Of a stretch of DNA of 64,000 bases, positions 3,687-59,472 are shown piece after piece. Position 1 is the stretch's first letter, and each line of letters begins with the position of its first letter. Made by a program: the position numbers and the translations under genes. The notes beneath the pieces were generated by a model, which saw only the letters and a program-made list of their open reading frames with translations, was not told where the DNA came from and did not search any database. This DNA comes from a virus (taxonomy: Duplodnaviria; Heunggongvirae; Uroviricota; Caudoviricetes), in the IMG/VR virus record IMGVR_UViG_3300014205_000201. The stretch is one strand, 5' to 3'.

Positions 3687-4640
3687 CTATGTCGCCTTAC
3701 CTACTGGAAGTAGAACTGGTAATAAAGAAAGCGCATTTTTTACTTTAGCCCAAACTTCATCAGGTTTTTTATATATGTCTTTCTCCCATAATCTTAGAAC
3801 TATGTATCCTTGCTTCCCAAGTGTATCGTTTACAATCGAATCTCTAATAAGCGCTTTAGGTTGGGTATGCCAATAGTTTCCATCAACAAATATACAAAGA
3901 TTAGGTGAAATAAAAATATCAGGAAGCCCAAACAAAGCAACATGTGTTTTAAAAATAATATTATTTGTTGTCAGAAGAGACTGCATTAATCTCTCAGGTT
4001 TGGTATTGTTACATGATGAAAACGTTTTTGCCCTTTGTTTTAATCCTTTTTCAGATTTACAATATTCAATTAATTTTTTACTAATTTTTTCGGCTTGTCC
4101 TTCAACAAATGGATGCGGTTTTCCTTTTAATGCATTGCTTATTTTCAATTTTCTTTCTGTTGAAAGAGGACTACATTTTCTGCCATTATATTTTGCTGGT
4201 TTTCTTTTTTTCCCATTAAGAGGTCTGTGCTTTCCACGCATACCATAATTTGGATATTCTTCTTCATTAAATTTTTTTCCAACATGAGCGGCGCTCAATT
4301 TTTGTTTTGTTTCCTGAGTTAAGTGCCTTCCTTTAAGTGTTTCGCCTATTTTTCTTCGCCATTCATCGTTTTTAACTAATCCTTTTACACCACTTGGTTT
4401 TCCCCTTTTCGATTCACTTAGTTTTCGCTTTGTATCTTCAGACATAGGCTTCCCCTTATTCCAACTTGGTTTTCCCATATGGGAAATTGAGAGTTTTTGC
4501 CTAGTTTCTAATGAAAATATTTTATCTTTTTTGATTCCAGCTTTATGTCCGCATATGTATTTGCATCGAGGATTTATTATTAACTGACCACAACCACAAG
4601 CGCAATATTTTTGCTTAGTTTTATCCAAGATAACAACCAC
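3687..4640 (-). CDS. homing-endonuclease-like protein: N-terminal Cys cluster, three NUMOD3 repeats, C-terminal Vsr/DUF559-like PD-(D/E)XK domain
   Basis: Repeats ETRQKLSISHMGKPSWNKG / DTKRKLSESKRGKPSGVKG / ETKQKLSAAHVGKK. C-terminal IFVDGNYWHTQPKALIRD resembles Vsr FVDGCFWH. Confidence 0.55.
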   Translation of the reverse strand: MVVILDKTKQKYCACGCGQLIINPRCKYICGHKAGIKKDKIFSLETRQKLSISHMGKPSWNKGKPMSEDTKRKLSESKRGKPSGVKGLVKNDEWRRKIGETLKGRHLTQETKQKLSAAHVGKKFNEEEYPNYGMRGKHRPLNGKKRKPAKYNGRKCSPLSTERKLKISNALKGKPHPFVEGQAEKISKKLIEYCKSEKGLKQRAKTFSSCNNTKPERLMQSLLTTNNIIFKTHVALFGLPDIFISPNLCIFVDGNYWHTQPKALIRDSIVNDTLGKQGYIVLRLWEKDIYKKPDEVWAKVKNALSLLPVLLPVGKAT

Positions 4641-9183: not shown

Positions 9184-9419
9184 TCACCAGTTTTGTTGTA
9201 ACTGTCAATCTTTCTTTCATGCCACCAAATATAGAAGCCTAAACTAATAGAAATAATTACAGCGCCAAAAATTATGTAAGGCAAAATTGATATAAGATTT
9301 AGTGGCCCAGGGCAACCTTGCCAAGTAGTACAGCTATACTTAGCTGGATTAAAGAAGCGGTCTATCTCTTCCCACCAAGTTAAGTTTGCTAAATGCTGAT
9401 GCCAAGCTTCACTCAACAT
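9180..9419 (-). CDS. small membrane protein (79 aa)
   Basis: TM helix; Trp-rich. Confidence 0.45.
   Translation of the reverse strand: MLSEAWHQHLANLTWWEEIDRFFNPAKYSCTTWQGCPGPLNLISILPYIIFGAVIISISLGFYIWWHERKIDSYNKTGE
9184..9208. promoter_or_regulatory. IR motif copy (tcaccagttttgttgtaactgtcaa)
   Basis: abuts the start codon at 9183. Confidence 0.5.
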
Positions 9420-10051
9420 ACATCACCAGTTTTATCATTTTGCAATCTAACAGATAGACAGTCTTTACGACCAGCAACAAAAGAATGTGTATGATAAGCT
9501 TTTACAAGACTAGTATTTTGTACACCTAATTTTAATTTACCAGGTGGATCAATCAACCATGGTTTTTCTTTTATTATTAAACCACGCATTTCATCTTCTA
9601 ATTGTAAATATAGTTTTTCCCTAAAGATCGGATCCTTGTTTTTCTGTGAACGATAATCAAGTAATTTCATCAAAACAATTGCCCTTTCTTTTTTCTGTAC
9701 TAAATAGGGAATGATCTTTGGCAAAATAATTCTTTGAGCATTAGGATAAAAACGTAAGTCATACCCGATTGCAGCAACTTCACCCTCTCGTTTAAAACGC
9801 ATTACAACAATATTTCCCAAACCACAAATCGAGTTTTTTATAAATTCAATATTATGTTTATTCATACTATTTATATTAACACGAGGCTCAAGTTCATAGC
9901 CACGATTACTGCCTTTCCATTTTTTTAGAAGCTTAGGGTTCTTATAATGTCTAAAGAGCATTATACATCCTTCACCATCGACCATTCCAGCGAGATACGC
10001 CCATGTCGTTTCTGGTATAGTTATATCGATTGCCATCACATATTCCACCAA
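9413..10051 (-). CDS. free-standing LAGLIDADG homing-endonuclease-like protein (paralog of 13729-14280)
   Basis: WAYLAGMVDGEGCIML matches the LAGLIDADG consensus; shares IILPKIIPYLVQKKE with the paralog. Confidence 0.65.
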   Translation of the reverse strand: MVEYVMAIDITIPETTWAYLAGMVDGEGCIMLFRHYKNPKLLKKWKGSNRGYELEPRVNINSMNKHNIEFIKNSICGLGNIVVMRFKREGEVAAIGYDLRFYPNAQRIILPKIIPYLVQKKERAIVLMKLLDYRSQKNKDPIFREKLYLQLEDEMRGLIIKEKPWLIDPPGKLKLGVQNTSLVKAYHTHSFVAGRKDCLSVRLQNDKTGDVC

Positions 10052-13351: not shown

Positions 13352-13729
13352 TTAAAACCCCCAGAAATAACTCGTTTTATATTCTAGTTCGTAGGCTAGC
13401 CCGTAGGTTTCGTTGAATATAGCGATGTATCCTTTGACGTTACTAATATATGCTTGATAAACTGGCATTTCAGTTGTAACTTGTCGTGTGAAGTAAACAT
13501 AATCGTCTGTGGTTTGAATAACTGTTGGGCTATTCACAACACCATCATAAACTGTATAGCCTTGAATTTGTAGATCGTGCTTTGCCTGAGCATTAACTGT
13601 ATCACGATTATTTGCAGTAGCATATATGCCGGCGAAAAGACCGCCGCATAATACAACAATAATAGTAATCATTGCGGCAAATATAACAAGTCCGCCGTAT
13701 TCATCCCAAAATCCCCATTCATGCCCCAT
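13352..13729 (-). CDS. small membrane protein (125 aa)
   Basis: TM helix after the N-terminal segment. Confidence 0.45.
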   Translation of the reverse strand: MGHEWGFWDEYGGLVIFAAMITIIVVLCGGLFAGIYATANNRDTVNAQAKHDLQIQGYTVYDGVVNSPTVIQTTDDYVYFTRQVTTEMPVYQAYISNVKGYIAIFNETYGLAYELEYKTSYFWGF

Positions 13730-14280
13730 TATTGTTTATCCTCCTTGCCAGTTAGCAGTATTGTTGGCACAGATTTTTTATACCATTTATAATGATTTGT
13801 TGAATGAGAAAATTTAGTACCATCCCAAATTGGTAAACGATAATATTTCCAGAATTGCTGTTTTTCTTGAGCCATCTCAAACAGAGCATAAAGTTCTTTT
13901 CTTCTCTGCTTTATATTTAAGTTATTAAGAACATGATTCGATTCTAAAAGATTAACCCATTCAAGATATATTTCAGCTATTTCCTTTTTCTGAATAAGAT
14001 AAGGAATAATATTAGGTAATATTATCTTTGCTTCATTTGAACGGAAACGTAGATAGTAAGTAAGAACTTTTCCGACTTCATGTTGCTCCTGTATCTTTCC
14101 CAACTTTAAAAGATATTGTAGGTCAAGCAAATTTTGTAGGTTCATATTTGAAATATTAAATTGACTCTCGCCACTTAAACGGTCTGTTCCGTTTATCTTG
14201 CGTTTACGTTGAGAGATATTAATACAACCCTCGCCATCAACAAAGCCAGCTAGATAAGCCCACACTGTTTCTGGTATCAT
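13729..14280 (-). CDS. free-standing LAGLIDADG homing-endonuclease-like protein (paralog of 9413-10051)
   Basis: WAYLAGFVDGEGCINIS; IILPNIIPYLIQKKE. Confidence 0.65.
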   Translation of the reverse strand: MIPETVWAYLAGFVDGEGCINISQRKRKINGTDRLSGESQFNISNMNLQNLLDLQYLLKLGKIQEQHEVGKVLTYYLRFRSNEAKIILPNIIPYLIQKKEIAEIYLEWVNLLESNHVLNNLNIKQRRKELYALFEMAQEKQQFWKYYRLPIWDGTKFSHSTNHYKWYKKSVPTILLTGKEDKQ

Positions 14281-20241: not shown

Positions 20242-20742
20242 ATGACATATTTTGATATTATTCGGCTAGCCGCCCTAATTGCAGTAATTGGGTATGCCGC
20301 CTGGCAAGATCACACAGTAACCATAAAGTTTGAACATAATGGTAAAATGGTTGAAGGTGGAGAAGTTAGAAATAAAACATGGCTTTATGCTCCTTTTGGG
20401 TTATGTTTAACATTTATTGCAATTTATCTTAATCCAGAAACCGCTTTAATGTCATTTCTCAGTATGGGTGCAACAATTGTTTTAGTATTAATTCTTGATC
20501 GCGTCGGCGGCATGGGAGGCGCTGATGGTAAAGCATTTCTTACAATAGCAGCCAGTATGCCACTTACACCCTTCAATATACAATTGCCAATAATGATGTA
20601 TCCGCTAGCCGTGATTTTAGTGTCAGCATTGCTGTCATTTGGGGTTTCATCAATAAAGCAGAAAAATGTGCCTATGCGTGATCGTCATGTACGATTTTTG
20701 CCTTACGTGTTTGTCAGTTTATTCATAGCATTGCTGATATGA
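20242..20742 (+). CDS. polytopic membrane protein; candidate A24-family prepilin/preflagellin peptidase (TadV/CpaA or FlaK-like)
   Basis: GGMGGADGKAFL resembles the GxGD/GGAD catalytic-Asp motif; an earlier Asp at WQDHT; size about 166 aa with 5 TM. Confidence 0.35.
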   Translation: MTYFDIIRLAALIAVIGYAAWQDHTVTIKFEHNGKMVEGGEVRNKTWLYAPFGLCLTFIAIYLNPETALMSFLSMGATIVLVLILDRVGGMGGADGKAFLTIAASMPLTPFNIQLPIMMYPLAVILVSALLSFGVSSIKQKNVPMRDRHVRFLPYVFVSLFIALLI

Positions 20743-33459: not shown

Positions 33460-33690
33460 ATGAAGTTCTGGAAAGTTTTTGGGTTAACGACAACAGTATC
33501 AGCAGTCTTAATGAGTGCCCTTACAGTGATATTTTATTCACAGGTTGACTTAACCTTAACATGGTATGCTATTATTTTTCCTGTTTTTACGGGTTTTATG
33601 ATTGCATTTCTATCTGATTTTGAGGAAGTTCTTGAGTGGGTGGGTAATAAACTATCGGATGTCAACAACAAATCGGAGGATCGCCCATGA
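33460..33690 (+). CDS. small membrane protein (76 aa, 2 TM)
   Basis: SD GGAGGT. Confidence 0.45.
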   Translation: MKFWKVFGLTTTVSAVLMSALTVIFYSQVDLTLTWYAIIFPVFTGFMIAFLSDFEEVLEWVGNKLSDVNNKSEDRP

Positions 33691-34019
33691 TGCCTAACAC
33701 CTATGTTAAAGTTATCCGTGATTGGAAAGCATCCGGTGGTCCTGATGTCTATTGTCCTGTTGATGTAGCCACTGGTAAAATGTATGTGGGTTTAAGTCTT
33801 ATCGGTTTTGTTCCTAAAGGTGGGATAATTGTGGGGGAGTTTGATGAAAAGACCGATACGCTCACGTTAAATAAACCAAAAGAAACAGTGGCGGGGGTAG
33901 TTGAGAAGAGGGACAACACCCTAAGTCAAAGGGAAGGCGTGGGTTCGACTCCCATCCCCCGACCATCTTCGATTAACAATCAGAAACCAACAGTTAGTCA
34001 ACGACCACAAAATATATAA
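33687..34019 (+). CDS. hypothetical protein (110 aa); its 3' third overlaps a tRNA-like element
   Basis: SD GGAGGAT. Confidence 0.4.
   Translation: MMPNTYVKVIRDWKASGGPDVYCPVDVATGKMYVGLSLIGFVPKGGIIVGEFDEKTDTLTLNKPKETVAGVVEKRDNTLSQREGVGSTPIPRPSSINNQKPTVSQRPQNI
33891..33963 (+). tRNA. tRNA-Asp(GUC)-like 73-nt element (degenerate): full cloverleaf by standard numbering but with G1-A72 and A27-A43 mismatches and A33 instead of U33
   Basis: Acceptor GCGGGGG / CCCCCGA. D arm GTTG-AGAAGAGGGA-CAAC. Anticodon arm CCCT-AAGTCAA-AGGG. T arm GTGGG-TTCGACT-CCCAT. Discriminator C then CA. Confidence 0.3.
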
Positions 34020-34463: not shown

Positions 34464-34706
34464 ATGTTGGTGATATACGGATGGCGAGGAAGAAGTCCAC
34501 AAGGGTTAATGTGGCTATACAGAAATATGCACCAACAATTCTTTGGCTTCGATGTACTACCCTATCAAGAGTTCTGCAAAATGCTAAATAATGCAGCATG
34601 TGAAAACCGAACCAAACACCAGCATTCATGGCGGCTAAAATATACTGGTGAATCACTGACGGATGAATCACGTTTAACAGGAGATAATGGAAATGCAGAC
34701 AAATGA
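34464..34706 (+). CDS. hypothetical protein (80 aa)
   Basis: co-directional packing. Confidence 0.4.
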   Translation: MLVIYGWRGRSPQGLMWLYRNMHQQFFGFDVLPYQEFCKMLNNAACENRTKHQHSWRLKYTGESLTDESRLTGDNGNADK

Positions 34707-35211
34707 ACAGGTAAGAAAAAAGCATCGAGAAAACTATGCTTTAAGTAATGGTGCGTATCTGCAAGCAAATAAAAAATGGAAGGTTGAACATCCAGGTAAA
34801 GAATATGAGGCAGGTATTAACTGGATTGTTAGAAATCGGCATAAGAAAAGAGCGCAAATGATTGCTCATCGATTGATTCCCCTAAAACCCGTTTGCGAAA
34901 TATGTGGAGGAATTGATAGATTACAAAGACACCACAAAGACTATGGCAAACCCTTAGAGGTTTTAACCCTATGTAATCCTTGCCATAATGCTTTGGAAGT
35001 AATTGAGCCAGCAAAGTATAGTAATCTACCTCAATTAAGATTCTATAATGGAGTCATTCCAGTTGAAATCTTAGATAGTACCTGTGTTGGGACTGGTAAA
35101 AAGTGGCCTTGTAAAATACTTGCAACAGGAGAAGTAAAGGCGTTGCATGTTGGGCGACTTTGTTATTTACCCAAAAGACGGCTAGAAAGACAAAAGACAA
35201 CGGAGCCTTAA
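34687..35211 (+). CDS. HNH endonuclease (paralog group of three)
   Basis: CEICGG...RHHKDYGKPLEVLTLCNPCHNALE. Confidence 0.6.
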   Translation: MEMQTNEQVRKKHRENYALSNGAYLQANKKWKVEHPGKEYEAGINWIVRNRHKKRAQMIAHRLIPLKPVCEICGGIDRLQRHHKDYGKPLEVLTLCNPCHNALEVIEPAKYSNLPQLRFYNGVIPVEILDSTCVGTGKKWPCKILATGEVKALHVGRLCYLPKRRLERQKTTEP

Positions 35212-35213
35212 CT

Positions 35214-35387
35214 ATGTGGATCTGTGACGATTGCCTACAAGACGGCGATAGAGTGTTCATATTCAAAAGCCACGGGCGCTGTGAAATCTGCGGGGAAACT
35301 AAGGACTGTTGGGATGTTAACATTCACTCTGATGCTGGCATTCCGATTAGTAAATCGAAACCGATAGGAGAAAAAGACCATGAGTGA
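35214..35387 (+). CDS. 57-aa zinc-ribbon protein (MWICDDC...CEICGETKDC); the track ORF 35160-35387 is N-extended
   Basis: in-frame ATG right after the HNH gene's stop. Confidence 0.4.
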   Translation: MWICDDCLQDGDRVFIFKSHGRCEICGETKDCWDVNIHSDAGIPISKSKPIGEKDHE

Positions 35388-35562
35388 AAAGCAAAAAACT
35401 GCCGAGGAAATACGGCAAGAACTCATTAAGATTCACTGTGAAAACCAAGACTGCGATGGCTGTCCTAAAGAGTATGAGTGTGAAGAGGAAGGATTACAAC
35501 AAGAAGCTAGAGATGAAGATGCAGCTTACGAGGCGTATGACGGTGATAGCTTTGACTATTAG
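35380..35562 (+). CDS. acidic Cys-containing protein (60 aa)
   Basis: SD AGGAGA. Confidence 0.45.
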   Translation: MSEKQKTAEEIRQELIKIHCENQDCDGCPKEYECEEEGLQQEARDEDAAYEAYDGDSFDY

Positions 35563-35579
35563 TGGGAAAGCGATAAAAA

Positions 35580-35912
35580 ATGAGTGAAAGAATAATCCGT
35601 GTTAAGTCTTGTACTGAATGCCCTCATTTTGGCACCCGTTGGCACTCTAAGGAACCTACCTATTACTGCGAATATAATGTGACAGGCCAAAAGCAAGAGG
35701 ATTACGGTGAGGAATTAAACATCTTAGACTTAATCCCTCTGTTCTGTCCACTTGAAAAAGCATCACTTTGTGCTGAGCCAAAGCTTTTTGATATGCCTAT
35801 AAAGATTGACCCTTCATTAAAGAATGATGAATTTGCTTTTGAAACTGCTAAAGGTAGGCAAGTATTCAAAATTAAGTCGGATTGCGTTGAAAAGTCGGAG
35901 GGTTCCAAGTGA
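35580..35912 (+). CDS. hypothetical protein (110 aa; CTECPHFG...C)
   Basis: co-directional packing. Confidence 0.45.
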   Translation: MSERIIRVKSCTECPHFGTRWHSKEPTYYCEYNVTGQKQEDYGEELNILDLIPLFCPLEKASLCAEPKLFDMPIKIDPSLKNDEFAFETAKGRQVFKIKSDCVEKSEGSK

Positions 35913-36202
35913 GTGACTTAGAAATAGAAAAACTTGAAAGAAAATACGAGTATGAGAGACGAAAAAAAGCAGAAGAACAATACGACATAATCAACCAAGC
36001 ATACCAACAATTATTAGATAATCTATCAATCTTTGAAGCTGAAGAAATAAACCCAACAGTGGATTATTTTCACCTATTAGGCAGACATCAAGATGCTGAA
36101 AGAATCAAAGAACGCTGGATAGAACTGTTTTCACAAAGAATCAAGGAAGCCCCGTTTATTTCATCGGATGCGAACCAACAATCAAAGGAGCCAACAAAAT
36201 GA
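35909..36202 (+). CDS. hypothetical coiled-coil protein (97 aa); GTG start
   Basis: SD GGAGGG. Confidence 0.45.
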   Translation: MSDLEIEKLERKYEYERRKKAEEQYDIINQAYQQLLDNLSIFEAEEINPTVDYFHLLGRHQDAERIKERWIELFSQRIKEAPFISSDANQQSKEPTK

Positions 36203-36297
36203 GGTGCCCAACATGGTTAATTCTAGTTGGTAAGTGTTGGTTCTGTGAAAATAAACCTGAATGTAAAGCATGGTTGAATCGTAATAAAAGAGATTGA
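36199..36297 (+). CDS. 32-aa Cys-rich mini-protein (MRCPTWLILVGKCWFCENKPECKAW...)
   Basis: hand-translated. Confidence 0.35.
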   Translation: MRCPTWLILVGKCWFCENKPECKAWLNRNKRD

Positions 36298-36413
36298 AAA
36301 ATATGGTGACTTACTTTTTAGATATTCTTGCCGGACTCGGTTTAGCTTTGATTATTAGAACTGTAATTTATTATTTATTTCAAGACGAATCGGAATAGTC
36401 TGTCGGTGACAAG

Positions 36414-37160
36414 ATGAAAAATTTGTACTATTGTCTTGATTGTTTCGCTAAAATTCCTAAAGATAGTATTTTAAAAGAAGGCCAAGTATACCGATTAAGA
36501 CAGCCTACAAAATGCTATATTTGCCACAAGACATTTAATCGTCCTATTAAGTTAATGAAGTTTTCAAAAGATAGTATTAGACAAGATTATTTTAGAAAAT
36601 GTTTAACATGTGGTTTTGAAGCCAAAACACTCGATGACCTTAAACTGTTTAAACCCCGAAAAGGAAAATACTTTGCTTATGGTGTTGATGCTATCTGCCT
36701 AAATTGTCATACTGCAAAAAACATTGAATATATGAAACGCCAAAGAGAAGTTAATCCCCAAAAAAGTAGAGAGGCAGTAATGAAAAATTATTATAAAGAC
36801 CCTTCAAAACAGAGGGCAAGGGATTATTCATGGCGATTTATACAACCTGATACAAAATGTGCCGCTTGTGGCGCTACAGGTGTTCCATTACAAAAACATC
36901 ATCCTGATTATTCGCAATGGGATTTAGTGATAACACTATGTCGTAAGTGTCATGCAAAGCTTCGTAAGACTCCTAAAAAAATTAAGCCTAAATTTTCTCT
37001 TTGTAGCCAATGCCAAAATAAAACTTATCCTCCTGGTTATGTGATAACTTGGAGATGTTTAGGTCATAATGCTGATGTAAGCCCTATCCGCGAACGGTGG
37101 TTTACCTGTTCTACTTTTAAGCCTATTAATACAATCCGAAATGGGGTTCAATCAACATGA
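36414..37160 (+). CDS. HNH endonuclease with N-terminal zinc fingers (248 aa)
   Basis: CAACGATGVPLQKHHPDYSQWDLVITLCRKCHAKL. Confidence 0.6.
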   Translation: MKNLYYCLDCFAKIPKDSILKEGQVYRLRQPTKCYICHKTFNRPIKLMKFSKDSIRQDYFRKCLTCGFEAKTLDDLKLFKPRKGKYFAYGVDAICLNCHTAKNIEYMKRQREVNPQKSREAVMKNYYKDPSKQRARDYSWRFIQPDTKCAACGATGVPLQKHHPDYSQWDLVITLCRKCHAKLRKTPKKIKPKFSLCSQCQNKTYPPGYVITWRCLGHNADVSPIRERWFTCSTFKPINTIRNGVQST

Positions 37161-37303
37161 GTGAAGAAGCACCTTGGGAAAAGGCAGAAAAAAGAATAAG
37201 AAGAAAATGGTTAATTGACCAAAGTAACCGCTTCAAAAAGCAAGGCGGCGGTATAAGCATAATATCGTTTACACAACATCAATCTAAGGAGGAAAAAACT
37301 TGA
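37157..37303 (+). CDS. 48-aa basic mini-protein
   Basis: ATGA overlap with the upstream gene. Confidence 0.35.
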   Translation: MSEEAPWEKAEKRIRRKWLIDQSNRFKKQGGGISIISFTQHQSKEEKT

Positions 37304-37686
37304 GTGATGAAGCTAGAGGCGGCGTTTGGACATGGTGGTATGATTGGAGATTTTTAGCGGTCTTGGTCGCTATCGCTATTCTTATTTGTAGCATAGCTAC
37401 TGCCACAAATTATTATAATATACAATCTTTAGAAGAACACTCTCGACCTGGGGATTACTGGTATAATGCGCCAGATGGAATCTATTGGGCTTACACTGGT
37501 AATATTTTTGTTAATCAAACAGCGCGCACCGCTTATTTTACGCCCTGCCCATCTTCATCTACACAATTACATTGTGGCCCCTTTGGGTGGAATGTCACTG
37601 AAACATATGATAATCCTTACAATAATTCTGTTAAGGTAAAACTAGCCGTAATAGACAATACGATTGTTACAGTTATTCTATACTAG
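37300..37686 (+). CDS. secreted or membrane protein (128 aa; N-terminal TM)
   Basis: SD AAGGAGG; TTG/GTG/ATG starts within 10 nt. Confidence 0.45.
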   Translation: MSDEARGGVWTWWYDWRFLAVLVAIAILICSIATATNYYNIQSLEEHSRPGDYWYNAPDGIYWAYTGNIFVNQTARTAYFTPCPSSSTQLHCGPFGWNVTETYDNPYNNSVKVKLAVIDNTIVTVILY

Positions 37687-37700
37687 TGACACTGAATAAT

Positions 37701-37720
37701 TTCTGCCATTTCAGGCAGAA
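37701..37720. terminator. hairpin TTCTGCC-ATTTCA-GGCAGAA, 15 nt after the last plus-block stop, at the convergent block junction
   Basis: perfect 7-bp inverted repeat. Confidence 0.4.
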
Positions 37721-37850
37721 CCGGCAGCAAATGAACTTGTTAAATTAATCCTAATCCTTTAAACAAAAGATAAAGTCCTACCCAGAGCATAACTAAGGGT
37801 AGTATCCGGTGAAGTTTTTCTTTAGTTTCTTCTTTCATTTCTCCATACTC

Positions 37851-37879
37851 CGTCAGTTAGTGTGAAACTGGTGAATTTA
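37851..37879. promoter_or_regulatory. IR motif copy (cgtcagttagtgtgaaactggtgaattt)
   Basis: CAGTT-N8-AACTGGTGA. Confidence 0.5.
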
Positions 37880-38027
37880 TCTTGTCAGCGTCTTCAGCAA
37901 AATTCAAACCAACTTCTAACAATACAGCGGCTTTTTCTTCAATAGTCATATCATCTTGGTTGTGATCTATCAATTCGCTAATTCTTTGAATTACTCTTGC
38001 GCTTACTTCAAGTTGTAGCTTTATCAT
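37857..38027 (-). CDS. 56-aa acidic mini-protein (MIKLQLEVSARVIQRISELIDHNQDD...)
   Basis: hand-translated; IR motif just upstream. Confidence 0.35.
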   Translation of the reverse strand: MIKLQLEVSARVIQRISELIDHNQDDMTIEEKAAVLLEVGLNFAEDADKINSPVSH

Positions 38028-38029
38028 TT

Positions 38030-38437
38030 TTATGTCACCGGTTTGTTAGGAACTGGTGAATAATCAGTACAGTTAGCGCAGCAATCATGCTCAGCCATAT
38101 ACAACCCTTTGTTGCACTCTATCCATGTGCTTAATCCCTCATCTTCTTCTCGTTTGATCCTGTGTATGCAATCTCTTTTTACTGATGGAAAGAACTCTGG
38201 GTGTGTTTTAGCCCATGTGCCAAACCATTTTTCATACCATTCATAAGCAGCTTTGCCATCAACAATTATTTCGCCGTCTGTAGCAAAACTTACTGGAAAC
38301 TCTTGCTCTGCCATATCAAGTACACACCAAAGACCGGCAGTGTTAACAGATAAAGAGTGTATTTGGCCGTCATTTTCACAGCTATCTTCATGTTGTTTCC
38401 TAATATCTTTGTATAGTTTACCATCATTTTGTCGCAT
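38030..38437 (-). CDS. hypothetical protein (135 aa)
   Basis: SD GGAGG + IR motif upstream. Confidence 0.5.
   Translation of the reverse strand: MRQNDGKLYKDIRKQHEDSCENDGQIHSLSVNTAGLWCVLDMAEQEFPVSFATDGEIIVDGKAAYEWYEKWFGTWAKTHPEFFPSVKRDCIHRIKREEDEGLSTWIECNKGLYMAEHDCCANCTDYSPVPNKPVT
38035..38060. promoter_or_regulatory. IR motif copy (tcaccggtttgttaggaactggtgaa)
   Basis: CACCGGTT-N7-AACTGGTGA. Confidence 0.5.
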
Positions 38438-38439
38438 TA

Positions 38440-38694
38440 TTATTTTCCTCCATGAGTTGCCAGTTCATTGGGAACTGGTGGATAACTTAGGTTAGATCGT
38501 TCTTTTCCCTGTTCTTCAGAATAGATATTTACGTAACCTTCATCAAAGACAGCTAGTATGTAGGTTGCTTGCGATTCCGTTATGGCTTTGTTCATGTTTT
38601 CATTTAAGAGTTTTATTAGGGCTTCTCTTGATTTGTCTGCAAATTCTTTGGTGCTGAATGCCCGTATTACTCCTGCGTTAAAGGTCATTGCCAT
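38440..38694 (-). CDS. hypothetical protein (84 aa)
   Basis: its C-terminal codons contain an IR motif. Confidence 0.45.
   Translation of the reverse strand: MAMTFNAGVIRAFSTKEFADKSREALIKLLNENMNKAITESQATYILAVFDEGYVNIYSEEQGKERSNLSYPPVPNELATHGGK
38458..38481. promoter_or_regulatory. IR motif copy, near-perfect palindrome (ttgccagttcattgggaactggtgg)
   Basis: CCAGTT-N7-AACTGG. Confidence 0.55.
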
Positions 38695-38914
38695 TTATGG
38701 TTCTCCTTGTTTGGCTAAATCATAATCCAATGAAGTTATCATTCTTTTGACAGTTTCACCATTATTATCTATTCCTTTTTGTGCTGCGTTTCTAAGAATT
38801 TTTGTAAATTCATCGTAATTGTTTTCTGTTTCTTTACATGGTTTAAATTGTATTGACATAGTTCTCAAGTCAGCGTTAATTACTTATAAGATTTTATGTC
38901 AGTAACATAACATG

Positions 38915-39310
38915 CTACGGTATATGTTTTGGCGGTAGCTGTGGGATGACTGGTTTGATGCTTCTTTTGAGTTGCGCTCCAAATTTTAGGTATAGTGTGC
39001 TGCCTGGATGCGGTTCTACTTCTATGGTTGGGGCATACTGGTTAATGAGCGCAATTAAGTCTTTAACTTGTAAGGTTTTGTCTGCTAGCTCGAATCGTGC
39101 TTCAGCTAAAGTTATTCTGCCTACATTATTGATGGCGTTATCTTTGGCCATGTCTATTAGTTTTTGTGCCAAGTTGTGTGGGGTGTCTTCTGTTTCATAG
39201 ACTTTTTTGGGTTGGATGCGTTTTACCGGTTCTAGCTGTTTCTTTGCTAAATGTTTTAGGGCATCTAGCGGTGATGGTTCTAGTTCTGTCCGACAATATT
39301 TTTCACTCAT
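38915..39310 (-). CDS. hypothetical protein (131 aa)
   Basis: co-directional packing. Confidence 0.45.
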   Translation of the reverse strand: MSEKYCRTELEPSPLDALKHLAKKQLEPVKRIQPKKVYETEDTPHNLAQKLIDMAKDNAINNVGRITLAEARFELADKTLQVKDLIALINQYAPTIEVEPHPGSTLYLKFGAQLKRSIKPVIPQLPPKHIP

Positions 39311-39660
39311 GTATTGACCTTCTTAAGTAGTTTATAGAATGGAATTTCGTCTAAGGTATGGTATCTTGAATTTATTTCTCCAAAGTTTTCTGCTAGAAGT
39401 TCTTTAATTTGTTGGTGTGATAATTTGTGATAAACTTCTTTTAGATTTAATTCTCTTATTACATATGCCCCTTCATTACATGTTGGGCAACGATAGAGAT
39501 TTCTATCTTTGTTAAGACATAGGCAAGCACCATGTTCTTTGCAAGTTACTTTATTATTTTCTGTCCAGAAGATTTTGCCAGTTGAAACTGATGTTAGGCC
39601 ATTTTTCACTATTGGATTGAATTTTGGCATGTCTTTTATATCAATTAGTTTATAGTTCAT
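39307..39660 (-). CDS. zinc-ribbon protein (CKEHGACLCL...CPTC); start at the internal Met MNYKLID with SD GGAGAG
   Basis: the track ORF 39307-39723 would overlap the HNH gene by 74 nt. Confidence 0.45.
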   Translation of the reverse strand: MNYKLIDIKDMPKFNPIVKNGLTSVSTGKIFWTENNKVTCKEHGACLCLNKDRNLYRCPTCNEGAYVIRELNLKEVYHKLSHQQIKELLAENFGEINSRYHTLDEIPFYKLLKKVNT

Positions 39661-40231
39661 TTTTATTCTCTCCTGCCAAATTATTTTTATCAGTATGTTC
39701 CCATCTATTACATGACCGCCCATTTATGGATACTTTGAATCTACCACAAGATGGCCAAATCTTTTTACAGCTATCACAATGCCTATTTGCGAAGTAGGAT
39801 ACAACATCTTTTGGGGTTCCCTTTGGTATATTATCTCTATGCCATAAACCATGGCACTTTCTACAAAGGGTTGTTACTGTGAGTGGTTTGGTATAGTCAT
39901 CATGATGCCTAACTAGGTTCTCTGTTGCACCACATTTTTCGCATTTATCTTTTAGTGATGTAAATGTATAGGCATATCTTTGTGCTTTAAAATGATCCAT
40001 GTTGTTTGATCGCCATTTATAATATGATTTGGCGTAAGCGTCAGCGTGCTCTTGTCTGTATTGTCTTGCTTTCTTATGGTCTGCTTCTTTTTGGTCGGGA
40101 GTTTTTGCATCATTTTTTGCTCTTCTTTTTAAATTTCGCTTATGATTATAATCTGGATCTATCAGCATTTGTTTATGGCGATATTTTGTTGAGGCGCTGG
40201 TCATTATGTTAATGCCTCGCATTTTAAGCAT
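39650..40231 (-). CDS. HNH endonuclease (third paralog)
   Basis: CEKCGATENLVRHHDDYTKPLTVTTLCRKCHGLWH. Confidence 0.6.
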   Translation of the reverse strand: MLKMRGINIMTSASTKYRHKQMLIDPDYNHKRNLKRRAKNDAKTPDQKEADHKKARQYRQEHADAYAKSYYKWRSNNMDHFKAQRYAYTFTSLKDKCEKCGATENLVRHHDDYTKPLTVTTLCRKCHGLWHRDNIPKGTPKDVVSYFANRHCDSCKKIWPSCGRFKVSINGRSCNRWEHTDKNNLAGENKNEL

Positions 40232-40440
40232 TTGAAATTGTCTTCATACTTTTCTTGGATAGTTAAGACTTCGCAATGTTGGCATCGTCGGATAACTTGA
40301 TTAGAATTTTTTATTACTGACCGTGCAAGTGTTTGGTACACTCTACAATAAGCCTTTTGTTTTTCTTTGTTTTTGTAGGGCAACTTATTGTTTACTCCTT
40401 ATTAGTATAGTAAACCATTACCCTGATATAAAAGGGTTTA

Positions 40441-40875
40441 CTAAACCTTGTCGTGGGATGCCGAAATATCACTAACTGTCAGTTCATCAAGGGATACTAT
40501 GCCTTCTACTTCTGAGCTAATTAGCAAAGTTTTAACATTTGCTTTTTTGGCACGTTCAAGCATATCTTTGGTTCCTTTGCTGTGTTCAAGGTCGTTATGA
40601 AAAGCAACAACTAAGATAGGCTTGTGTTTATCCAGCATCATTTGGTTGCGAATTGGTCCCGCAGCTTTACCATACTTGAACCAATCAGCCTTTTCCTCAA
40701 TAACATTCATCCCTAAATCTTTAGCAAGCCAACCGCTAATTTTATCAGCGCCTCGACAGCCCCCCTCTATAATTGTTATCTGTTTAGGGTAGGTATTTAG
40801 TGTTAAAGATTGAAGGTAATGCTTTATCAATTCTACATGGTTCCAGTTTCTATCACCACAGATTAAAATTTTCAT
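40441..40875 (-). CDS. SLOG-superfamily protein (DUF2493/YspA-like)
   Basis: GGCRGADKISGWLAKDLG ... GKAAGPIRNQMML. Confidence 0.5.
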   Translation of the reverse strand: MKILICGDRNWNHVELIKHYLQSLTLNTYPKQITIIEGGCRGADKISGWLAKDLGMNVIEEKADWFKYGKAAGPIRNQMMLDKHKPILVVAFHNDLEHSKGTKDMLERAKKANVKTLLISSEVEGIVSLDELTVSDISASHDKV

Positions 40876-41474
40876 TTAATTACCTCAGTAAATTGTGTAA
40901 TAGATTGTTGTTGTCGTTGAAATAAAAGTTTTCGAGCTAACGAGTTTGCTTTAGATGATACAACTGTTGCTTTTTTCATACCAGTATTTCTTAAGAACTT
41001 ATCATAAAGACGATCATGCTCAGATTTAACTGGTGTTTGCAATTTTGGTTCATCAAGAACAGAAATGCCCTTCGCATCAGGGTAGTATGTTCCTACGCCT
41101 AAATCTTGAAAAGCTTTCCGATTTTTTATTAATTCTTTAAAGTCACAAATAAAAGCGCAAGAATAATCAAAGTAACGTGCGTAATTCTGAGTTTGTAGAA
41201 TAGCAGTTTTAACTTTATCACCTATATGTTTGACTTCAAAAGCCCAGAGTTTTCCATCTTTCCAAGCGGCAACATCTACCAATCCATAAAGGTCATGTTG
41301 GTCTAGTGATGCTACTTCTTCACAGTCATCATATCTGTTCCAGTAAAGGAATGGCATATTGTTAACATGTACTGAAGGACACCAAAACTCCATTGGATAA
41401 ACCCTGTAGCCATTACTGCTTAACCATTGGGCTAAGGCTGGGTAATCTCCAACGTAATGTTTTGGGTAAGGCAA
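40872..41474 (-). CDS. PD-(D/E)XK-family nuclease-like protein (Hjc-like core), 200 aa
   Basis: GLVDVAAWKDGKLWAFEVKH (D...EVK); ATGA-overlapped with the SLOG gene. Confidence 0.45.
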   Translation of the reverse strand: MPYPKHYVGDYPALAQWLSSNGYRVYPMEFWCPSVHVNNMPFLYWNRYDDCEEVASLDQHDLYGLVDVAAWKDGKLWAFEVKHIGDKVKTAILQTQNYARYFDYSCAFICDFKELIKNRKAFQDLGVGTYYPDAKGISVLDEPKLQTPVKSEHDRLYDKFLRNTGMKKATVVSSKANSLARKLLFQRQQQSITQFTEVIK

Positions 41475-44468: not shown

Positions 44469-44777
44469 TTAAGATTTGGGGTTAGTTGTTAAATCAGCGC
44501 CATCCGTTTCGAATTTGCCAGACTTCCCCGATTCATCAAAAACAAAGCCATCGCGCTTTACCCATATTCTAAAACAATTTTCTACAGTGTGAGCAACTTG
44601 ATACAGCATACAGTGGTGATAGTGGCCTTTCGCTTGGTAGATGTCTGTCTCTCTTATGACTTCATCACAGGTGCATTGTAAGTCAGGGTCTAACAGTAGT
44701 ATATCCCATATGTCTTGTTCGATTGAAGCTTGAAGATACTCTTTCTCTATTTTTGTAGATATTTCTTTTAAATTCAT
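44469..44777 (-). CDS. hypothetical protein (102 aa)
   Basis: co-directional packing. Confidence 0.45.
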   Translation of the reverse strand: MNLKEISTKIEKEYLQASIEQDIWDILLLDPDLQCTCDEVIRETDIYQAKGHYHHCMLYQVAHTVENCFRIWVKRDGFVFDESGKSGKFETDGADLTTNPKS

Positions 44778-45442
44778 AATTTTGCCTCGCTTATCGGTTG
44801 TGCATGAAGCAACGAATTAGGGGCTAATTCCTGAACTAACCATCTTTTGGTTTGATTGGTCAATGTCTCTGCTATTTGTCTGTAGCAACTATCAACTACC
44901 CAATCCTCAATACGGTTAAACCTTGCATTACGGCTAACTTTTATACCATGTAAGTGAAACCCTTGATTTTCCATAGTTACATAGTGGGGATATTCCACCA
45001 ATAAATTGTCTAAATCGACTTCGATTATGCCAACACTTGAAGAAACTTCTGAGTGTTCGATAAGACCTTTAGGAATTAGGAGATAGTTATAATTGCATCC
45101 TGTGTGGATGAAGCCGTTTTTAAAGTCTGACCGTGAAACCTTTATTTCAAATCCACGTAAAATGTTATTGAATTTTATTTTCTGGTCATACTCTACTTCA
45201 CCATACTTGACCTTCTCATTTTTTTGCTCCTTATAGGGAATATATTTTTTGGATACCCCAAGAACGTCGATAATATAATGTTTGTCAGCATCGTGTAATA
45301 GGTGGTCACGCATGGTTAGTTTTATCTCTGTTGAAATAGCATAACAACCCATCTTTTTCAACATAAGAAAACCAACCTTTGTTAGTAGCGCAGTTGTTTG
45401 CCTATCAGTAAGTTTAGCTTTTTCCAGACAAGTAACGCTCAT
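44774..45442 (-). CDS. PD-(D/E)XK nuclease-like protein (222 aa)
   Basis: IIDVLGV ... GFEIKVSRSD (D...E-x-K). Confidence 0.4.
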   Translation of the reverse strand: MSVTCLEKAKLTDRQTTALLTKVGFLMLKKMGCYAISTEIKLTMRDHLLHDADKHYIIDVLGVSKKYIPYKEQKNEKVKYGEVEYDQKIKFNNILRGFEIKVSRSDFKNGFIHTGCNYNYLLIPKGLIEHSEVSSSVGIIEVDLDNLLVEYPHYVTMENQGFHLHGIKVSRNARFNRIEDWVVDSCYRQIAETLTNQTKRWLVQELAPNSLLHAQPISEAKL

Positions 45443-45951
45443 TAGTTTGTAACTCCTTTAGGTCTTTCAAAATAGAACCAAGACGTAACACTGCGCGGTT
45501 CTGTGCTGCCCTTGCGCTTTACTCCATTAGAAAAACGTACTTGGCTGCCGAACTTGGGCTTAAATGGGAAGCAAGCTAAGAAGCGCCCGTTAGAAATATG
45601 GTTGTCATTCCATTTTAATTGCAAGTTTCCTAATGGTTCAAGCACCCGCATAAATTCGTCAAATGCTTGTCTTAAATCACGCTGCCACGTTTCAGGTTCA
45701 AGTAGGCCGTATTTTTCTGCGAAGTTAAAGCCCATTGGCTTACCCTTTGAGACATAGAGCATATGCGGGAAGTCTGCAACTACTGTTCTAAATTTGCCTT
45801 CAACAAAGGGGAGGTTTTGCCAGACACAGATAATATCTGGCTTAACTTCACGGCGCTTATCCATATAGACTGTATCGGGGTCCTTCTTGTCAATCCACAT
45901 GGCGCGGAAACTTGCGGTAGCATCAAGGATGTGGGGTTGGTTAGAACTCAT
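45442..45951 (-). CDS. hypothetical protein with weak methyltransferase-like motifs (ILDATASF; VADFPHM)
   Basis: 169 aa; the motifs are only suggestive. Confidence 0.3.
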   Translation of the reverse strand: MSSNQPHILDATASFRAMWIDKKDPDTVYMDKRREVKPDIICVWQNLPFVEGKFRTVVADFPHMLYVSKGKPMGFNFAEKYGLLEPETWQRDLRQAFDEFMRVLEPLGNLQLKWNDNHISNGRFLACFPFKPKFGSQVRFSNGVKRKGSTEPRSVTSWFYFERPKGVTN

Positions 45952-46134
45952 TAGTCAATTCACACCCCGCTAAGGGATGCTTTTATTTTTTGAAAATAAG
46001 CATCCGTTAACTCTACGCTTTCCTGTAACAAAGATTCGTATTCTTGAAGTAGCTGTTGTTGCTTGCTTAGATTCTCGTTAAGTTTCTTATGAACTGGTGC
46101 TAATTGCTTTTTTAATTCTTCCATACTCATCGAT

Positions 46135-46575
46135 CTAAAACCTCCGATCTGGTTTACCTTTTAATACAAAAAGCGTAATCGGTGAAGGTGAAGTACAGGG
46201 CTTTTGAGTTCTTGCATCTATCCATCTGATTCGGCCCATTGACCTGAGTTCTGCACCGGCTTCTAACATTAGGTTAACATAGCTTTGTGTTGGCAGAACC
46301 ATTACGCTTGTTTTTCCCTTTTTGCTTTCCTCGATAGCTTTCCGCACAAACGCCGTAGGTCCATGGTTATTGAGTGCGTCTTTCTTTCGGAAAGGTGGGT
46401 TTATCCAGTTAACATTGCCCCAGGTTGCTTCTATACCGTCTTGCTTGTATGGGTAGGGGCATGGGTCAAAATCAAAATGGAACTCTGAATTTAATGGCTC
46501 GAAGATGTCTTTAGGGATTAGCCAGTATTGAGCATCATTGGAGTATTTGATTGGTGTGAGTAATTGCTGTATCAC
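46135..46575 (-). CDS. DNA N6-adenine methyltransferase, phage Dam family (PF05869-like)
   Basis: FDFDPCP ... WINPPF (NPPF motif IV); 146 aa. Confidence 0.6.
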   Translation of the reverse strand: MIQQLLTPIKYSNDAQYWLIPKDIFEPLNSEFHFDFDPCPYPYKQDGIEATWGNVNWINPPFRKKDALNNHGPTAFVRKAIEESKKGKTSVMVLPTQSYVNLMLEAGAELRSMGRIRWIDARTQKPCTSPSPITLFVLKGKPDRRF

Positions 46576-47389: not shown

Positions 47390-47733
47390 TCACCGCCAGA
47401 TTTTGTTAAACCATCAGCGACTGCTCTATCCCCCCATTTTAATGGGACATCAGATTCATCGATGTATCTTTCATAATATGGATTAAGCGCCCACCAGTAA
47501 ACCTTCTTGCGAATATCATGAGGCACAATCGACCTACCTATAGTAGATAAAGCCAAATTAGATAGCCAAAGACCGAACCCATGAATGCTTGTTTCAGGAT
47601 GACGCAAAGCTACTTCGCTTAAGCGTTCACCCGTAAGAACCAAATCTTGAAGCACCTTTGGAAAAACACCTTCACGTTTACTTGAGGCAATAAGAAGCTG
47701 CATTAGTTCCTCATCGGTCAATAGTTTTCTCAT
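47386..47733 (-). CDS. hypothetical protein (115 aa)
   Basis: ATGA overlap. Confidence 0.45.
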   Translation of the reverse strand: MRKLLTDEELMQLLIASSKREGVFPKVLQDLVLTGERLSEVALRHPETSIHGFGLWLSNLALSTIGRSIVPHDIRKKVYWWALNPYYERYIDESDVPLKWGDRAVADGLTKSGGE

Positions 47734-48032
47734 TATAGAACCACCTTCATAGTGCCAAACTTGCCAACATTAAGTTGCATTTCTCCTTTGAAGCTAGTTA
47801 CATAACCGTTTTCAATCTGTATCCAATCTCCATTCTGAACAAGATCTATTTGTTCATTCCAAAGAGTTAATTTCATTGAGTCGCCATTGCCATCTATTAT
47901 TGTGGCATCACATATCCGATAGGTTTCGTCTTTAAACCGTGACTTAACTTCTCTAATGCTACTTTTTTCTCCGATTTGAGCTTTCAAACTAACTCTTTTA
48001 GATCCATCTTGAAGTTCTTTAATTTGAGTCAT
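47733..48032 (-). CDS. hypothetical protein (99 aa)
   Basis: co-directional packing. Confidence 0.45.
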   Translation of the reverse strand: MTQIKELQDGSKRVSLKAQIGEKSSIREVKSRFKDETYRICDATIIDGNGDSMKLTLWNEQIDLVQNGDWIQIENGYVTSFKGEMQLNVGKFGTMKVVL

Positions 48033-55778: not shown

Positions 55779-55805
55779 ACCGACAGTTACGATGAAACTG
55801 TCAAC
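55779..55805. promoter_or_regulatory. IR motif copy (caccgacagttacgatgaaactgtcaac); the rightmost copy noticed
   Basis: GACAGTT-N8-AACTGTCA. Confidence 0.5.
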
Positions 55806-56979
55806 AACTAAACTCCACACATAACTTCTTAATATACCGATGCCAACACTCACGAAGCTCCGCATAATTACCAGCTTGATTAGGCAACGCAACACCCCTA
55901 CCAGACCATCCAACATAGGCAACTAAATCTACACCATCAAATCCCCGATACTTCACTAATTCATCAGTACGAATATGCCGTAAACCATGAATCTTCAAAG
56001 GCTTAGGATGTGAAAGTACCTTGTATATTTGGCGGCGATAAATTTTACCATAATAATCCATTCGGTATTCAAACTCGTCAATAGATATGACCTTTAAACC
56101 TATCTTGTTTGGTGAAGTTTCAATAAGTTCATTGTATAACCCTTTCTTAATGCCCTCAAGATCTTCTTTAGATAGTAATTCATCACTCGCATCATTATAT
56201 GTATATTTTTTAATACGATAGGTTAACCCCTTAAACACAGGATCTTTACGACTAATATAATCCCAAATTTCAGCCCTACTAAAAGGAAAAACAGGTTTAC
56301 CCTTATGCATCTGAAAATATTTATAAATTATTTTTGTCCATGGCTCAAAGTCCTCTGATAAAGGTAAAGCCACTAGCCGATAAGGAGCTTCTTCACCTTT
56401 AACTAACCCATGTGTCTTCGCAATTTTGATTTTAAAAACCACAACTGGAATCCGTGTCTTCGCCTTAGTAATAGCATCTTTTATAGAGATGCTACCCTGT
56501 TGTATTGATAGCAACATTTCCAATACATCAAGCCATTGTGGATCAGGAGGCTCAGTATTATCCAACCAAGCATCATCACCGTATGGTCCATAGTTCATGG
56601 TGTACCCACTAGATTTATCAGCAGAAGAACGATTGAAAGCAATTTCACATGCCCTAGCAGCGCCACATAAATAAACAGTCATCAAATAAACACGATAACA
56701 TTCAACCTTCACGCTTTCAATAGCATGACGAACAGCCATAACTGAAGGCAAACTATGACAAGAGGAAACCACAACATCAATCTTCACTCTATCTTGCTTT
56801 CTGCAAAAAACACGGGGAATTTTAATGCGAAATAAACAAGGATACTTATACTCAGATAAAGAAGGATTAAAATTTTTACAGTTGCCACAAAGTAAAGGCA
56901 CATATTTTTTGAGGCTTGGTTTACGTCTTGGCGTATTGGACACCAAAACTAAAGTTAACGCTAACTGACTTAAATACAT
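55801..56979 (-). CDS. tyrosine recombinase/integrase (paralog of 49272-50171). An N-terminal extension of about 120 aa that is Cys-rich may be a mis-start; the Met at MNYGPYGDDAWLD is a plausible true start.
   Basis: KIHGLRHIRTDE (HxxR) ... AELRECWHRY; FKIKIAKTHG ... APYRLVALPL ... FEPW. Confidence 0.6.
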   Translation of the reverse strand: MYLSQLALTLVLVSNTPRRKPSLKKYVPLLCGNCKNFNPSLSEYKYPCLFRIKIPRVFCRKQDRVKIDVVVSSCHSLPSVMAVRHAIESVKVECYRVYLMTVYLCGAARACEIAFNRSSADKSSGYTMNYGPYGDDAWLDNTEPPDPQWLDVLEMLLSIQQGSISIKDAITKAKTRIPVVVFKIKIAKTHGLVKGEEAPYRLVALPLSEDFEPWTKIIYKYFQMHKGKPVFPFSRAEIWDYISRKDPVFKGLTYRIKKYTYNDASDELLSKEDLEGIKKGLYNELIETSPNKIGLKVISIDEFEYRMDYYGKIYRRQIYKVLSHPKPLKIHGLRHIRTDELVKYRGFDGVDLVAYVGWSGRGVALPNQAGNYAELRECWHRYIKKLCVEFSC

Positions 56980-57075
56980 ATTACAAAAATGGATATATGT
57001 CTAATTTAAAATAAAAAAAGGGAAGCCAAGTATGTACCTGAACGTTCCAAGCCATGAAGATTGTACTTAATCATA

Positions 57076-57094
57076 GGGATGCATTTTGCATCCC
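57076..57094. terminator. perfect 8-bp hairpin GGGATGCA-TTT-TGCATCCC, 15 nt downstream of the 57109-59460 stop
   Basis: no adjacent U-tract. Confidence 0.35.
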
Positions 57095-57108
57095 AAAACG
57101 ATTATTCC

Positions 57109-59460: not shown

Positions 59461-59472
59461 TCTTAACTCCTC

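Follow-up and report, generated by a model that had tools for sequence, protein, structure and literature searches.

Three divergent HNH-type genes, plausibly homing endonucleases, in an endonuclease-rich virus-like element known from metagenomes

Introduction

The viral metagenome record IMGVR_UViG_3300014205_000201 (Caudoviricetes) contains, within the 64,000 nucleotides analysed here (the window), three open reading frames (ORFs) between positions 34,687 and 40,231 that share a short core rich in cysteine and histidine. They raise the question of what kind of enzyme they encode, whether they arose from one another in place, and how the load of endonuclease-like genes in this element compares with that of well-studied phages. 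The three genes are regarded here, with moderate confidence, as free-standing selfish endonuclease genes of the homing type, which belong to one HNH superfamily and were acquired independently. The 64-kb window belongs to a metagenomic contig of 87 kb, which has been assembled independently in several datasets. When 15 kb of it were compared with deposited phages by megablast, no match and no close relative were found.

Three HNH genes with a common core

The three genes, and a small ORF adjoining the last of them, are as follows.

34687..35211, plus strand: HNH-1, the short form, 174 amino acids; metagenome gene callers start it at 34693
36414..37160, plus strand: HNH-2, the long form, 248 amino acids; HNH core at 36858-36953
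39650..40231, minus strand: HNH-3, an ORF of 193 amino acids; callers start it at 40204 or 40168 (184 or 172 amino acids)
40204..40383, minus strand: an ORF of 59 amino acids abutting HNH-3 in another frame, with a family-typical N-terminus, a C-x2-C…C-x2-C cluster and a double stop

The coordinates and strands given to the three HNH ORFs in the initial annotation are correct, and the proteins do have a common core, C-x2-C-G…HH-x-DY…V-x-TLC-x2-CH. In a three-way alignment (HNH-1 numbering), C70, C73, G74, L79, H82, H83, D85, Y86, V92, T94, L95, C96, C99 and H100 are invariant. The motif HH-x-DY occurs exactly three times in the 64 kb, according to a six-frame scan by regular expression, and always within C-x2-C…HH…LC-x2-CH. 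Pairwise BLASTP comparisons gave E-values of 9e-16 (HNH-1 with HNH-3), 1e-11 (HNH-2 with HNH-3) and 4e-9 (HNH-1 with HNH-2), so the proteins are truly homologous and their likeness is not due to chance.

HNH-1 comprises three N-terminal helices (residues 6-63), the Cys4-zinc HNH core (residues 70-100, at 34894-34986) and a C-terminal β-barrel of the SH3/Tudor-like type (residues ~117-155, at 35035-35151). HNH-2 begins with an N-terminal extension that has four extra C-x2-C pairs (residues 7-98), followed by helical repeats, the core and a Cys-rich C-terminal module. In HNH-3, helical repeats are followed by a core (39851-39943) in which CH-x3-H is complete, and the C-terminus is a Cys4-like module (HCDSC…WPSC…RSC). 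The three lineages differ in their modules: the short form has an SH3-like barrel, the long form has Cys clusters at its N-terminus, and the third form ends in a Cys4 module.

A plus-strand gene block (~20.2-37.7 kb) has HNH-1 and HNH-2 close to its end, and the minus-strand block that converges on it (~38.0-50.2 kb) has HNH-3 in the corresponding position. Since all three are co-oriented with their own blocks, the single minus-strand copy has no special meaning.

The 59-amino-acid ORF opens with PYKNKEKQKAYCRVYQ (PYKNKEKQKAY…), which may be compared with MPYKDKEKHKEH… in the relative P0161. The resemblance to the N-terminus of P0161 is weak (50% over 22 amino acids, E=3.6e-4 in a small database). 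The double stop falls exactly at the start of the HNH-3 body. From its sequence, the ORF may once have encoded the N-terminus of a long-form HNH-3 and been separated from it by a frame disruption, or the pair may reflect a programmed frameshift or two separate genes; a fused translation of the ORF and HNH-3 gave alignments to homologs no longer than before. Elsewhere in the window, an ORF of 134 amino acids (5915-6319, minus strand) has K/R/Y-rich helical repeats (…YYYANLERSK…YIKHQKERL…YYRKKN…) resembling the N-terminal region of the HNH family. The repeats are followed by C-x2-C…C-x3-C without an HH core, and the ORF may encode a protein that is related to the DNA-binding module but lacks the nuclease.

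A large superfamily with few names

Among the sequence libraries searched, only PHROG families labelled endonuclease or HNH match the three proteins. PHROG 2340 ("endonuclease") matches all of them (E=2e-11 for HNH-1, 7e-4 for HNH-2 and 1.6e-9 for HNH-3), and PHROG 8048 ("HNH endonuclease") matches HNH-2 at E=7e-4. A word-indexed search of 5.8 billion proteins returned just 24 close relatives, all without a name or a Pfam domain. An exhaustive HMMER search found the N-terminal helices together with the core in 25,582 representative clusters at E≤1e-3 and in 2,819 at E≤1e-10. With clusters counted at 50% identity (about 25,600), the superfamily is, by these profile matches, very large and common in virus-like metagenomic contigs and phages. 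Its members mostly have 100-200 amino acids. The few relatives detectable in deposited phages are labelled "putative hnhc nuclease", "endonuclease VII", "endonuclease" or "hypothetical".

A sample of 65 members gave the signature C-x2-C-G-S-T…L-E-R-HH-P-DY-S-K-P-L-E-V-x-T-L-C-x2-C-H-x3-H. The residues C70, C73, H82, H83, Y86, C96 and C99 are invariant in this sample, H100 is present in 64 of the 65 and H104 in 53.

Predicted fold and catalytic residues

The full-length model predicted for HNH-1 (predicted local distance difference test score, pLDDT, 86) shows three N-terminal helices, a β-β-α unit (residues 80-106) and a five-stranded C-terminal barrel. A fold search with it was dominated by SH3/Tudor/PWWP/KOW barrels, with the ββα-metal (ββα-Me) enzyme Hpy99I at rank 2. 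As the full-length search was uninformative on the core, a model of the core alone was used, and with it the HNH assignment was recovered. The best structural neighbour of the core is the T5 SciA nicking endonuclease, and the nickases GVE2 HNH and Gme HNH are also among the top matches. As in ββα-Me enzymes, the predicted core has a β-hairpin and then an α-helix, and the catalytic His stands where the first strand ends. The metal-ligand His of the helix, H100 in C-x2-C-H, is kept in all three proteins. Predicted fold and motif conservation thus support HNH-type (ββα-Me) proteins, an assignment that curated sequence models do not supply. The catalytic motifs are present by alignment and by fold, as had been proposed, although curated profiles fail to reach the three proteins.

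In the mechanism proposed, a structural zinc site of four cysteines (C70/C73/C96/C99) would hold together a catalytic core of ~35 residues. The general base would be His83, located where strand β1 ends, and His82 and His100, joined by His104 in HNH-3, would hold the catalytic divalent metal. The flanking modules, namely a basic, Tyr-rich, helical N-terminal region and a lineage-specific C-terminal module, would bind DNA and set specificity, and the putative enzyme would nick or cut DNA at a specific site.

The closest known systems are free-standing phage HNH endonucleases (T4 mobA-E and I-HmuI) and small phage HNH nickases (T5 SciA, GVE2 HNH and Gme HNH). They likewise combine a ββα-metal core, in which β1 ends in HH, with a structural Cys4 zinc site (C-x2-C…C-x2-C-H). 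Both these phage enzymes and the window proteins are small and modular, with a separate DNA-binding region. Unlike the known enzymes, the window proteins carry the core in the middle, between the N-terminal helices and an SH3-like or Cys-rich C-terminal module, and their HH-x-DY motif sits in a shortened β-hairpin.

Origins and genomic contexts

The initial annotation had described the three genes as paralogs. They are homologous, but a local or recent duplication is not supported, since each protein is 57-61% identical to proteins on unrelated contigs, while the siblings share only 34-39%, in the core region only. HNH-1 is 52-61% identical to a group of relatives (P0004-P0019). The closest relatives of HNH-2 are P0021 and P0022 (57%), with a further match (P0144/L032) at 38% over 256 amino acids, and those of HNH-3 are P0064 (60%) and P0083 (48%). 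At the DNA level, neither similarity among the three genes nor common flanking repeats were found beyond chance. Judged from these comparisons, the genes are old, separately diverged lineages.

The 26 related loci that were fetched (L002-L007, L015-L034) have little or nothing in common with the window beyond the HNH gene. The neighbours of the relatives are mixed and include a major head protein, DNA methyltransferases, a PAPS reductase, an HNH/EndoVII-type gene and a UvsX-like recombinase. Two loci (L007 and L032) each hold two copies of the HNH family. The only hint of presence/absence variation comes from the window gene 33687-34019: in L003 and L004 a long-form HNH gene comes directly after its homolog, whereas the 5 kb upstream and the 418 bp downstream of its homolog in L015 contain none. 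Varied neighbours and multiple copies indicate a distribution that is independent of genomic background, as is characteristic of free-standing homing genes. The free-standing endonuclease genes of T4 have, like the window HNH genes, intergenic-type positions and the orientation of their neighbours (PMC2988022). The HNH genes would have entered the genome independently, between small accessory genes at the ends of the two converging blocks.

One of the loci (L016, IMGVR_UViG_3300037067_021357) is another viral contig, of 39.6 kb, from the same Joint Genome Institute (JGI) sample as the contig of the window. It encodes a 53%-identical short-form HNH protein and has no further genes in common with the window. 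This is consistent with an exchange of endonuclease genes between co-occurring viruses.

Homing and its alternatives

Homing is the best-supported biology for the three genes, and the pattern of contexts is as expected of free-standing selfish endonuclease genes. It is rated as plausible only. Homology, predicted fold, conserved motifs and a distribution independent of context are established by the comparisons, while nuclease activity, site specificity and homing itself are inferred. Several observations weigh against homing, or against the HNH assignment. All public copies of the genome are identical in gene order. Syntenic relatives without the HNH genes were sought in IMG/VR by means of flanking genes, in exact-protein look-ups and in one metagenome scan; none appeared, and everything returned was either a re-assembly of this genome or a very distant locus. 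Base composition gives no sign of a foreign origin for the HNH genes. No curated HNH profile of Pfam or NCBIfam matches any of the three proteins at threshold; PF01844 is touched by 6 of the 65 superfamily members, all sub-threshold, with a best E of 0.0018. Searches with two family profiles (A2 and A3) gave no HNH assignment either: a single protein had no match among PDB sequences, and the profiles found no HNH protein there below E≈0.9. The canonical Asn of H-N-H is not conserved: five residues before C96 the proteins have E (HNH-1), L (HNH-2) and T (HNH-3), and 47 of the 65 superfamily members have E or D at this position. Variants of the His-Me finger without the Asn are known, so its loss does not exclude an HNH fold. 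The second helix His (CH-x3-H) is found in HNH-3 only, with E in HNH-1 and R in HNH-2, so some of the copies could be weakened or inactive.

This last point leads to the idea, judged distinctly unlikely, that some copies are catalytically dead and represent domesticated DNA-binding proteins or decaying pseudogenes from late in the life cycle of a homing endonuclease. The His missing from HNH-1 and HNH-2 is the one present in 53 of the 65 superfamily members, HNH-2 and HNH-3 lack an acidic residue at the Asn position, and the family-typical N-terminus upstream of HNH-3 is out of frame and ends in a double stop. However, the general-base His, its neighbouring His, the His of C-x2-C-H and the four zinc cysteines are intact in all three proteins. 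Moreover, the HNH-1 subfamily retains E104 together with a very highly conserved core (RHHKDYGKPLEVLTLC in about 18 members), which argues for selection on a functional HNH-1 core. Many active HNH enzymes also manage with only two metal ligands, as in the sites of Cas9 and of the T4 endonuclease VII type. A less improbable alternative, although still an unlikely one, is that the proteins serve the DNA metabolism of the virus itself, as site-specific nickases of the T5 SciA type or as HNH cofactors of terminase like HK97 gp74. The structural neighbours named above, with SciA as the best and the GVE2 and Gme nickases among the top, would fit such a function, as would the many minimal IMG/VR relatives of ~115 amino acids, two of which adjoin major head protein genes. 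Against it, no capsid, portal or terminase gene was recognised in the window by Pfam and PHROGs scans of its ORFs, and neither terminase nor portal was recognised beside the relatives examined; a packaging HNH was on this ground rejected as the main explanation. Nor would a dedicated packaging factor be expected as three divergent copies within 5.5 kb, in contexts that keep changing and without a conserved partner gene.

It is very improbable that the endonucleases serve mainly as weapons against co-infecting viruses or host DNA and not for their own copying. Six nucleases of three families in one element, together with 2-3 DNA methyltransferases that could protect its own DNA, would suit such a purpose. 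Models of defence and anti-defence systems, on the other hand, do not match the HNH proteins, and a weapon would be compatible with homing, because the cutting of a competitor is the first step of homing. The separate proposal of a defence system was discarded after a scan with the PADLOC models, in which none of the three HNH proteins had a match.

Endonucleases of two further families

Outside the HNH cluster, three more endonuclease-type genes are present.

3687..4640, minus strand: EDxHD-family (Vsr-like) homing-type endonuclease, 317 amino acids, with Pfam, NCBIfam, PDB and PADLOC matches
9413..10051, minus strand: single-motif LAGLIDADG endonuclease, 212 amino acids, motif LAGMVDGEG; PF00961 at E=0.006 and 17.8 bits, below the cutoff
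13729..14280, minus strand: single-motif LAGLIDADG endonuclease, 183 amino acids, motif LAGFVDGEG; PF00961 (LAGLIDADG_1) at E=3.9e-10 and 41 bits, above the cutoff

The protein of 3687-4640 had been described as a chimera of NUMOD3 and Vsr with an uncommon architecture. Pfam bears out the domains: NUMOD3 occurs four times (E=2.7e-18, residues ~42-148, at 4197-4517), N-terminal of a Vsr-like catalytic domain (residues ~204-305, at 3726-4031) that matches PF03852 at E=7.3e-8, above the cutoff, and TIGR00632 (vsr) at E=3.9e-10. The architecture, in contrast, is a published one. An N-terminal NUMOD with a C-terminal Vsr-like nuclease defines the EDxHD family (PMC2677866, PMC3239194), which was named by Taylor et al. 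(2011) on characterising I-Bth0305I, and in which the domain order is the reverse of that in GIY-YIG and HNH enzymes (PMC3239194). Stand-alone copies of Vsr-like homing endonucleases, outside introns, were described by Dassa et al. (2009) (PMC2677866). The best match of the window protein in the whole PDB is 3r3p, the catalytic domain of I-Bth0305I (E=8.4e-5), and the PADLOC "HEase" model (266 positions) matches at E=1.2e-7.

The HMMER alignment to 3r3p places the EDxHD motif at E216, D241, D253 (the x position), H257 and D267, with D241 two columns off in the printed alignment, beside a gap. The corresponding residues of I-Bth0305I are E170, D196, N208, H213 and D222 (roles from PMC3239194). 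The window protein is therefore like the family in its N-terminal NUMOD repeats, in a C-terminal Vsr fold without the zinc site of Vsr, and in its E/D/H/D residues. Unlike the prototype, which has two NUMOD2-like motifs, it has four NUMOD3 repeats, and there is no visible sign of an intron, an intein or a split host gene. The extra acidic residue that is strongly conserved in the family (E206 in I-Bth0305I) is replaced by Phe (F251), as in Vsr itself (F62). Of the 120 best relatives in the database of 5.8 billion proteins, some two dozen combine NUMOD3 with Vsr, DUF559 or MTES_1575, and no protein among deposited phage genomes matched both halves. The architecture is rare among cultured phages but established.

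The two LAGLIDADG proteins are paralogs encoded 3.7 kb apart (39% identity, E=2e-21). That of 13729-14280 matches I-MsoI at E=4e-10 and the PADLOC HEase model at E=1.9e-8; for that of 9413-10051 the values are 2e-6 and 6.8e-5. By these matches both genes are real and I-MsoI-like, with the single-motif, homodimeric I-MsoI as the best match. Like I-CreI and I-MsoI, the predicted proteins have one LAGLIDADG motif with its catalytic acidic residue and a length of ~180-210 amino acids. Enzymes of the I-CreI/I-MsoI type are encoded in introns of organellar and archaeal rRNA genes, whereas the two diverged copies of the window stand free in a virus-like element. Both proteins also match PHROG families 5046 and 12980, whose annotation as "HNH endonuclease" is a mislabel of the library. 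Such a mislabel of LAGLIDADG proteins would inflate HNH counts in the automated annotation of phages.

Endonuclease load of the element

Three HNH, two LAGLIDADG and one EDxHD gene confirm that the element has at least six free-standing endonuclease-type genes. The remaining ORFs of at least 70 amino acids, with the exception of a few short hydrophobic ones, were scanned against Pfam and PHROGs and gave no further homing-endonuclease family, so the tally of six stands. Together they cover 3,999 bp (6.2% of the window), at ~1 gene per 10.7 kb.

This density had been called typical of T4-like phages, a description that is imprecise. T4 has 15 homing-endonuclease genes, which make up 11% of its coding potential, and is described as an outlier unmatched by other T-even-like phages (PMC2988022). 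The load of the window is accordingly high and not typical, because T4 is an outlier among its own relatives. In count density the two are comparable (15 per 169 kb in T4 and 6 per 64 kb in the window), while the coding fraction of 11% in T4 stands against 6.2% here. The families differ as well, being GIY-YIG and HNH in T4 and HNH, LAGLIDADG and EDxHD in the window, where none is intron-encoded.

The practical interest of the locus is twofold. Pfam and NCBIfam both miss a very large family of small HNH proteins, whose members are tagged "hypothetical" across metagenomes, and structure prediction restricted to the core recovers the assignment. The element also offers a compact natural set of six candidate site-specific nucleases of three families, which could be mined for new specificities; among the candidates are an EDxHD enzyme that carries NUMOD3 repeats and HNH enzymes whose recognition module is SH3-like or a Zn-ribbon. 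Established concepts are left unchanged, as high homing-endonuclease loads (T4) and all three families are already well known. All six genes are ordinary representatives of known families, and what modest interest there is comes from how large the unmodelled HNH clade is and from the presence of three families side by side in an orphan element. It would go much further, and it is improbable, to regard the three HNH genes as representatives of a huge HH-x-DY clade missed by curated profiles, whose lineage-specific modules (SH3-like barrel, Zn-ribbon arrays) provide new target recognition, and the orphan, possibly archaeal, element as a natural hotspot of three unrelated families, which possibly form a joint arsenal for competition between viruses and are more than parasites.

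Other features of the element

Few other genes have been recognised in the window: a tyrosine integrase, an RNA ligase, an SPFH protein, 2-3 DNA methyltransferases, a YAcAr/SLOG protein and an Ssb-like OB fold. Three large proteins encoded at 55801-60753 (392, 783 and 426 amino acids) had no matches at all. Features with a bearing on the endonuclease genes or on the host are listed below.

33891-33964, plus strand: transfer RNA (tRNA) for Asp (GTC), inside the 3' third of the 110-amino-acid ORF 33687-34019 and ~700 bp upstream of HNH-1
40441-41474, minus strand: translationally coupled genes for a YAcAr/SLOG-family protein (PF10686, E=1.7e-10) and a 200-amino-acid protein
44774-46575, minus strand: cluster of 2-3 small DNA methyltransferase-like genes (PHROG 954, 6151, 111)
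44774-45442, minus strand: protein matching "DNA repair protein" PHROGs, in the methyltransferase cluster
3080-3685 and 62930-63742, both minus strand: family-2 glycosyltransferases, one near each end of the window
20242-20742, plus strand: Peptidase_A24 (prepilin/preflagellin peptidase)-like protein
47733-48032, minus strand: Ssb-like OB fold (PF21473)

A single tRNA-Asp is present in the window. The ORF that overlaps it is probably shorter and ends before the tRNA, because only its N-terminal ~63-72 residues are conserved in relatives (L003, L015). In T4, segB is likewise located among tRNA genes.

The YAcAr/SLOG pair lies immediately upstream of HNH-3, past a 15-nt inverted repeat at 40405-40446, and its 200-amino-acid partner has a PD-(D/E)XK-like motif (…VDVAAWKDGKLWAFEVK…). 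In the IMG/VR relatives L008-L011, the conserved part of the pair is the SLOG gene only. The methyltransferase cluster could keep the element from cutting its own DNA with its nucleases, or could shield that DNA from restriction by the host.

Several features hint at an archaeal host, namely the free-standing LAGLIDADG genes, a Nanoarchaeota-labelled relative of the EDxHD protein, the Peptidase_A24-like protein and the Ssb-like OB fold. Promoter and terminator scans, which do not apply if the host is archaeal, gave background levels only. The glycosyltransferase gene at 3080-3685 ends 1 nt before the ORF of the EDxHD endonuclease gene starts.

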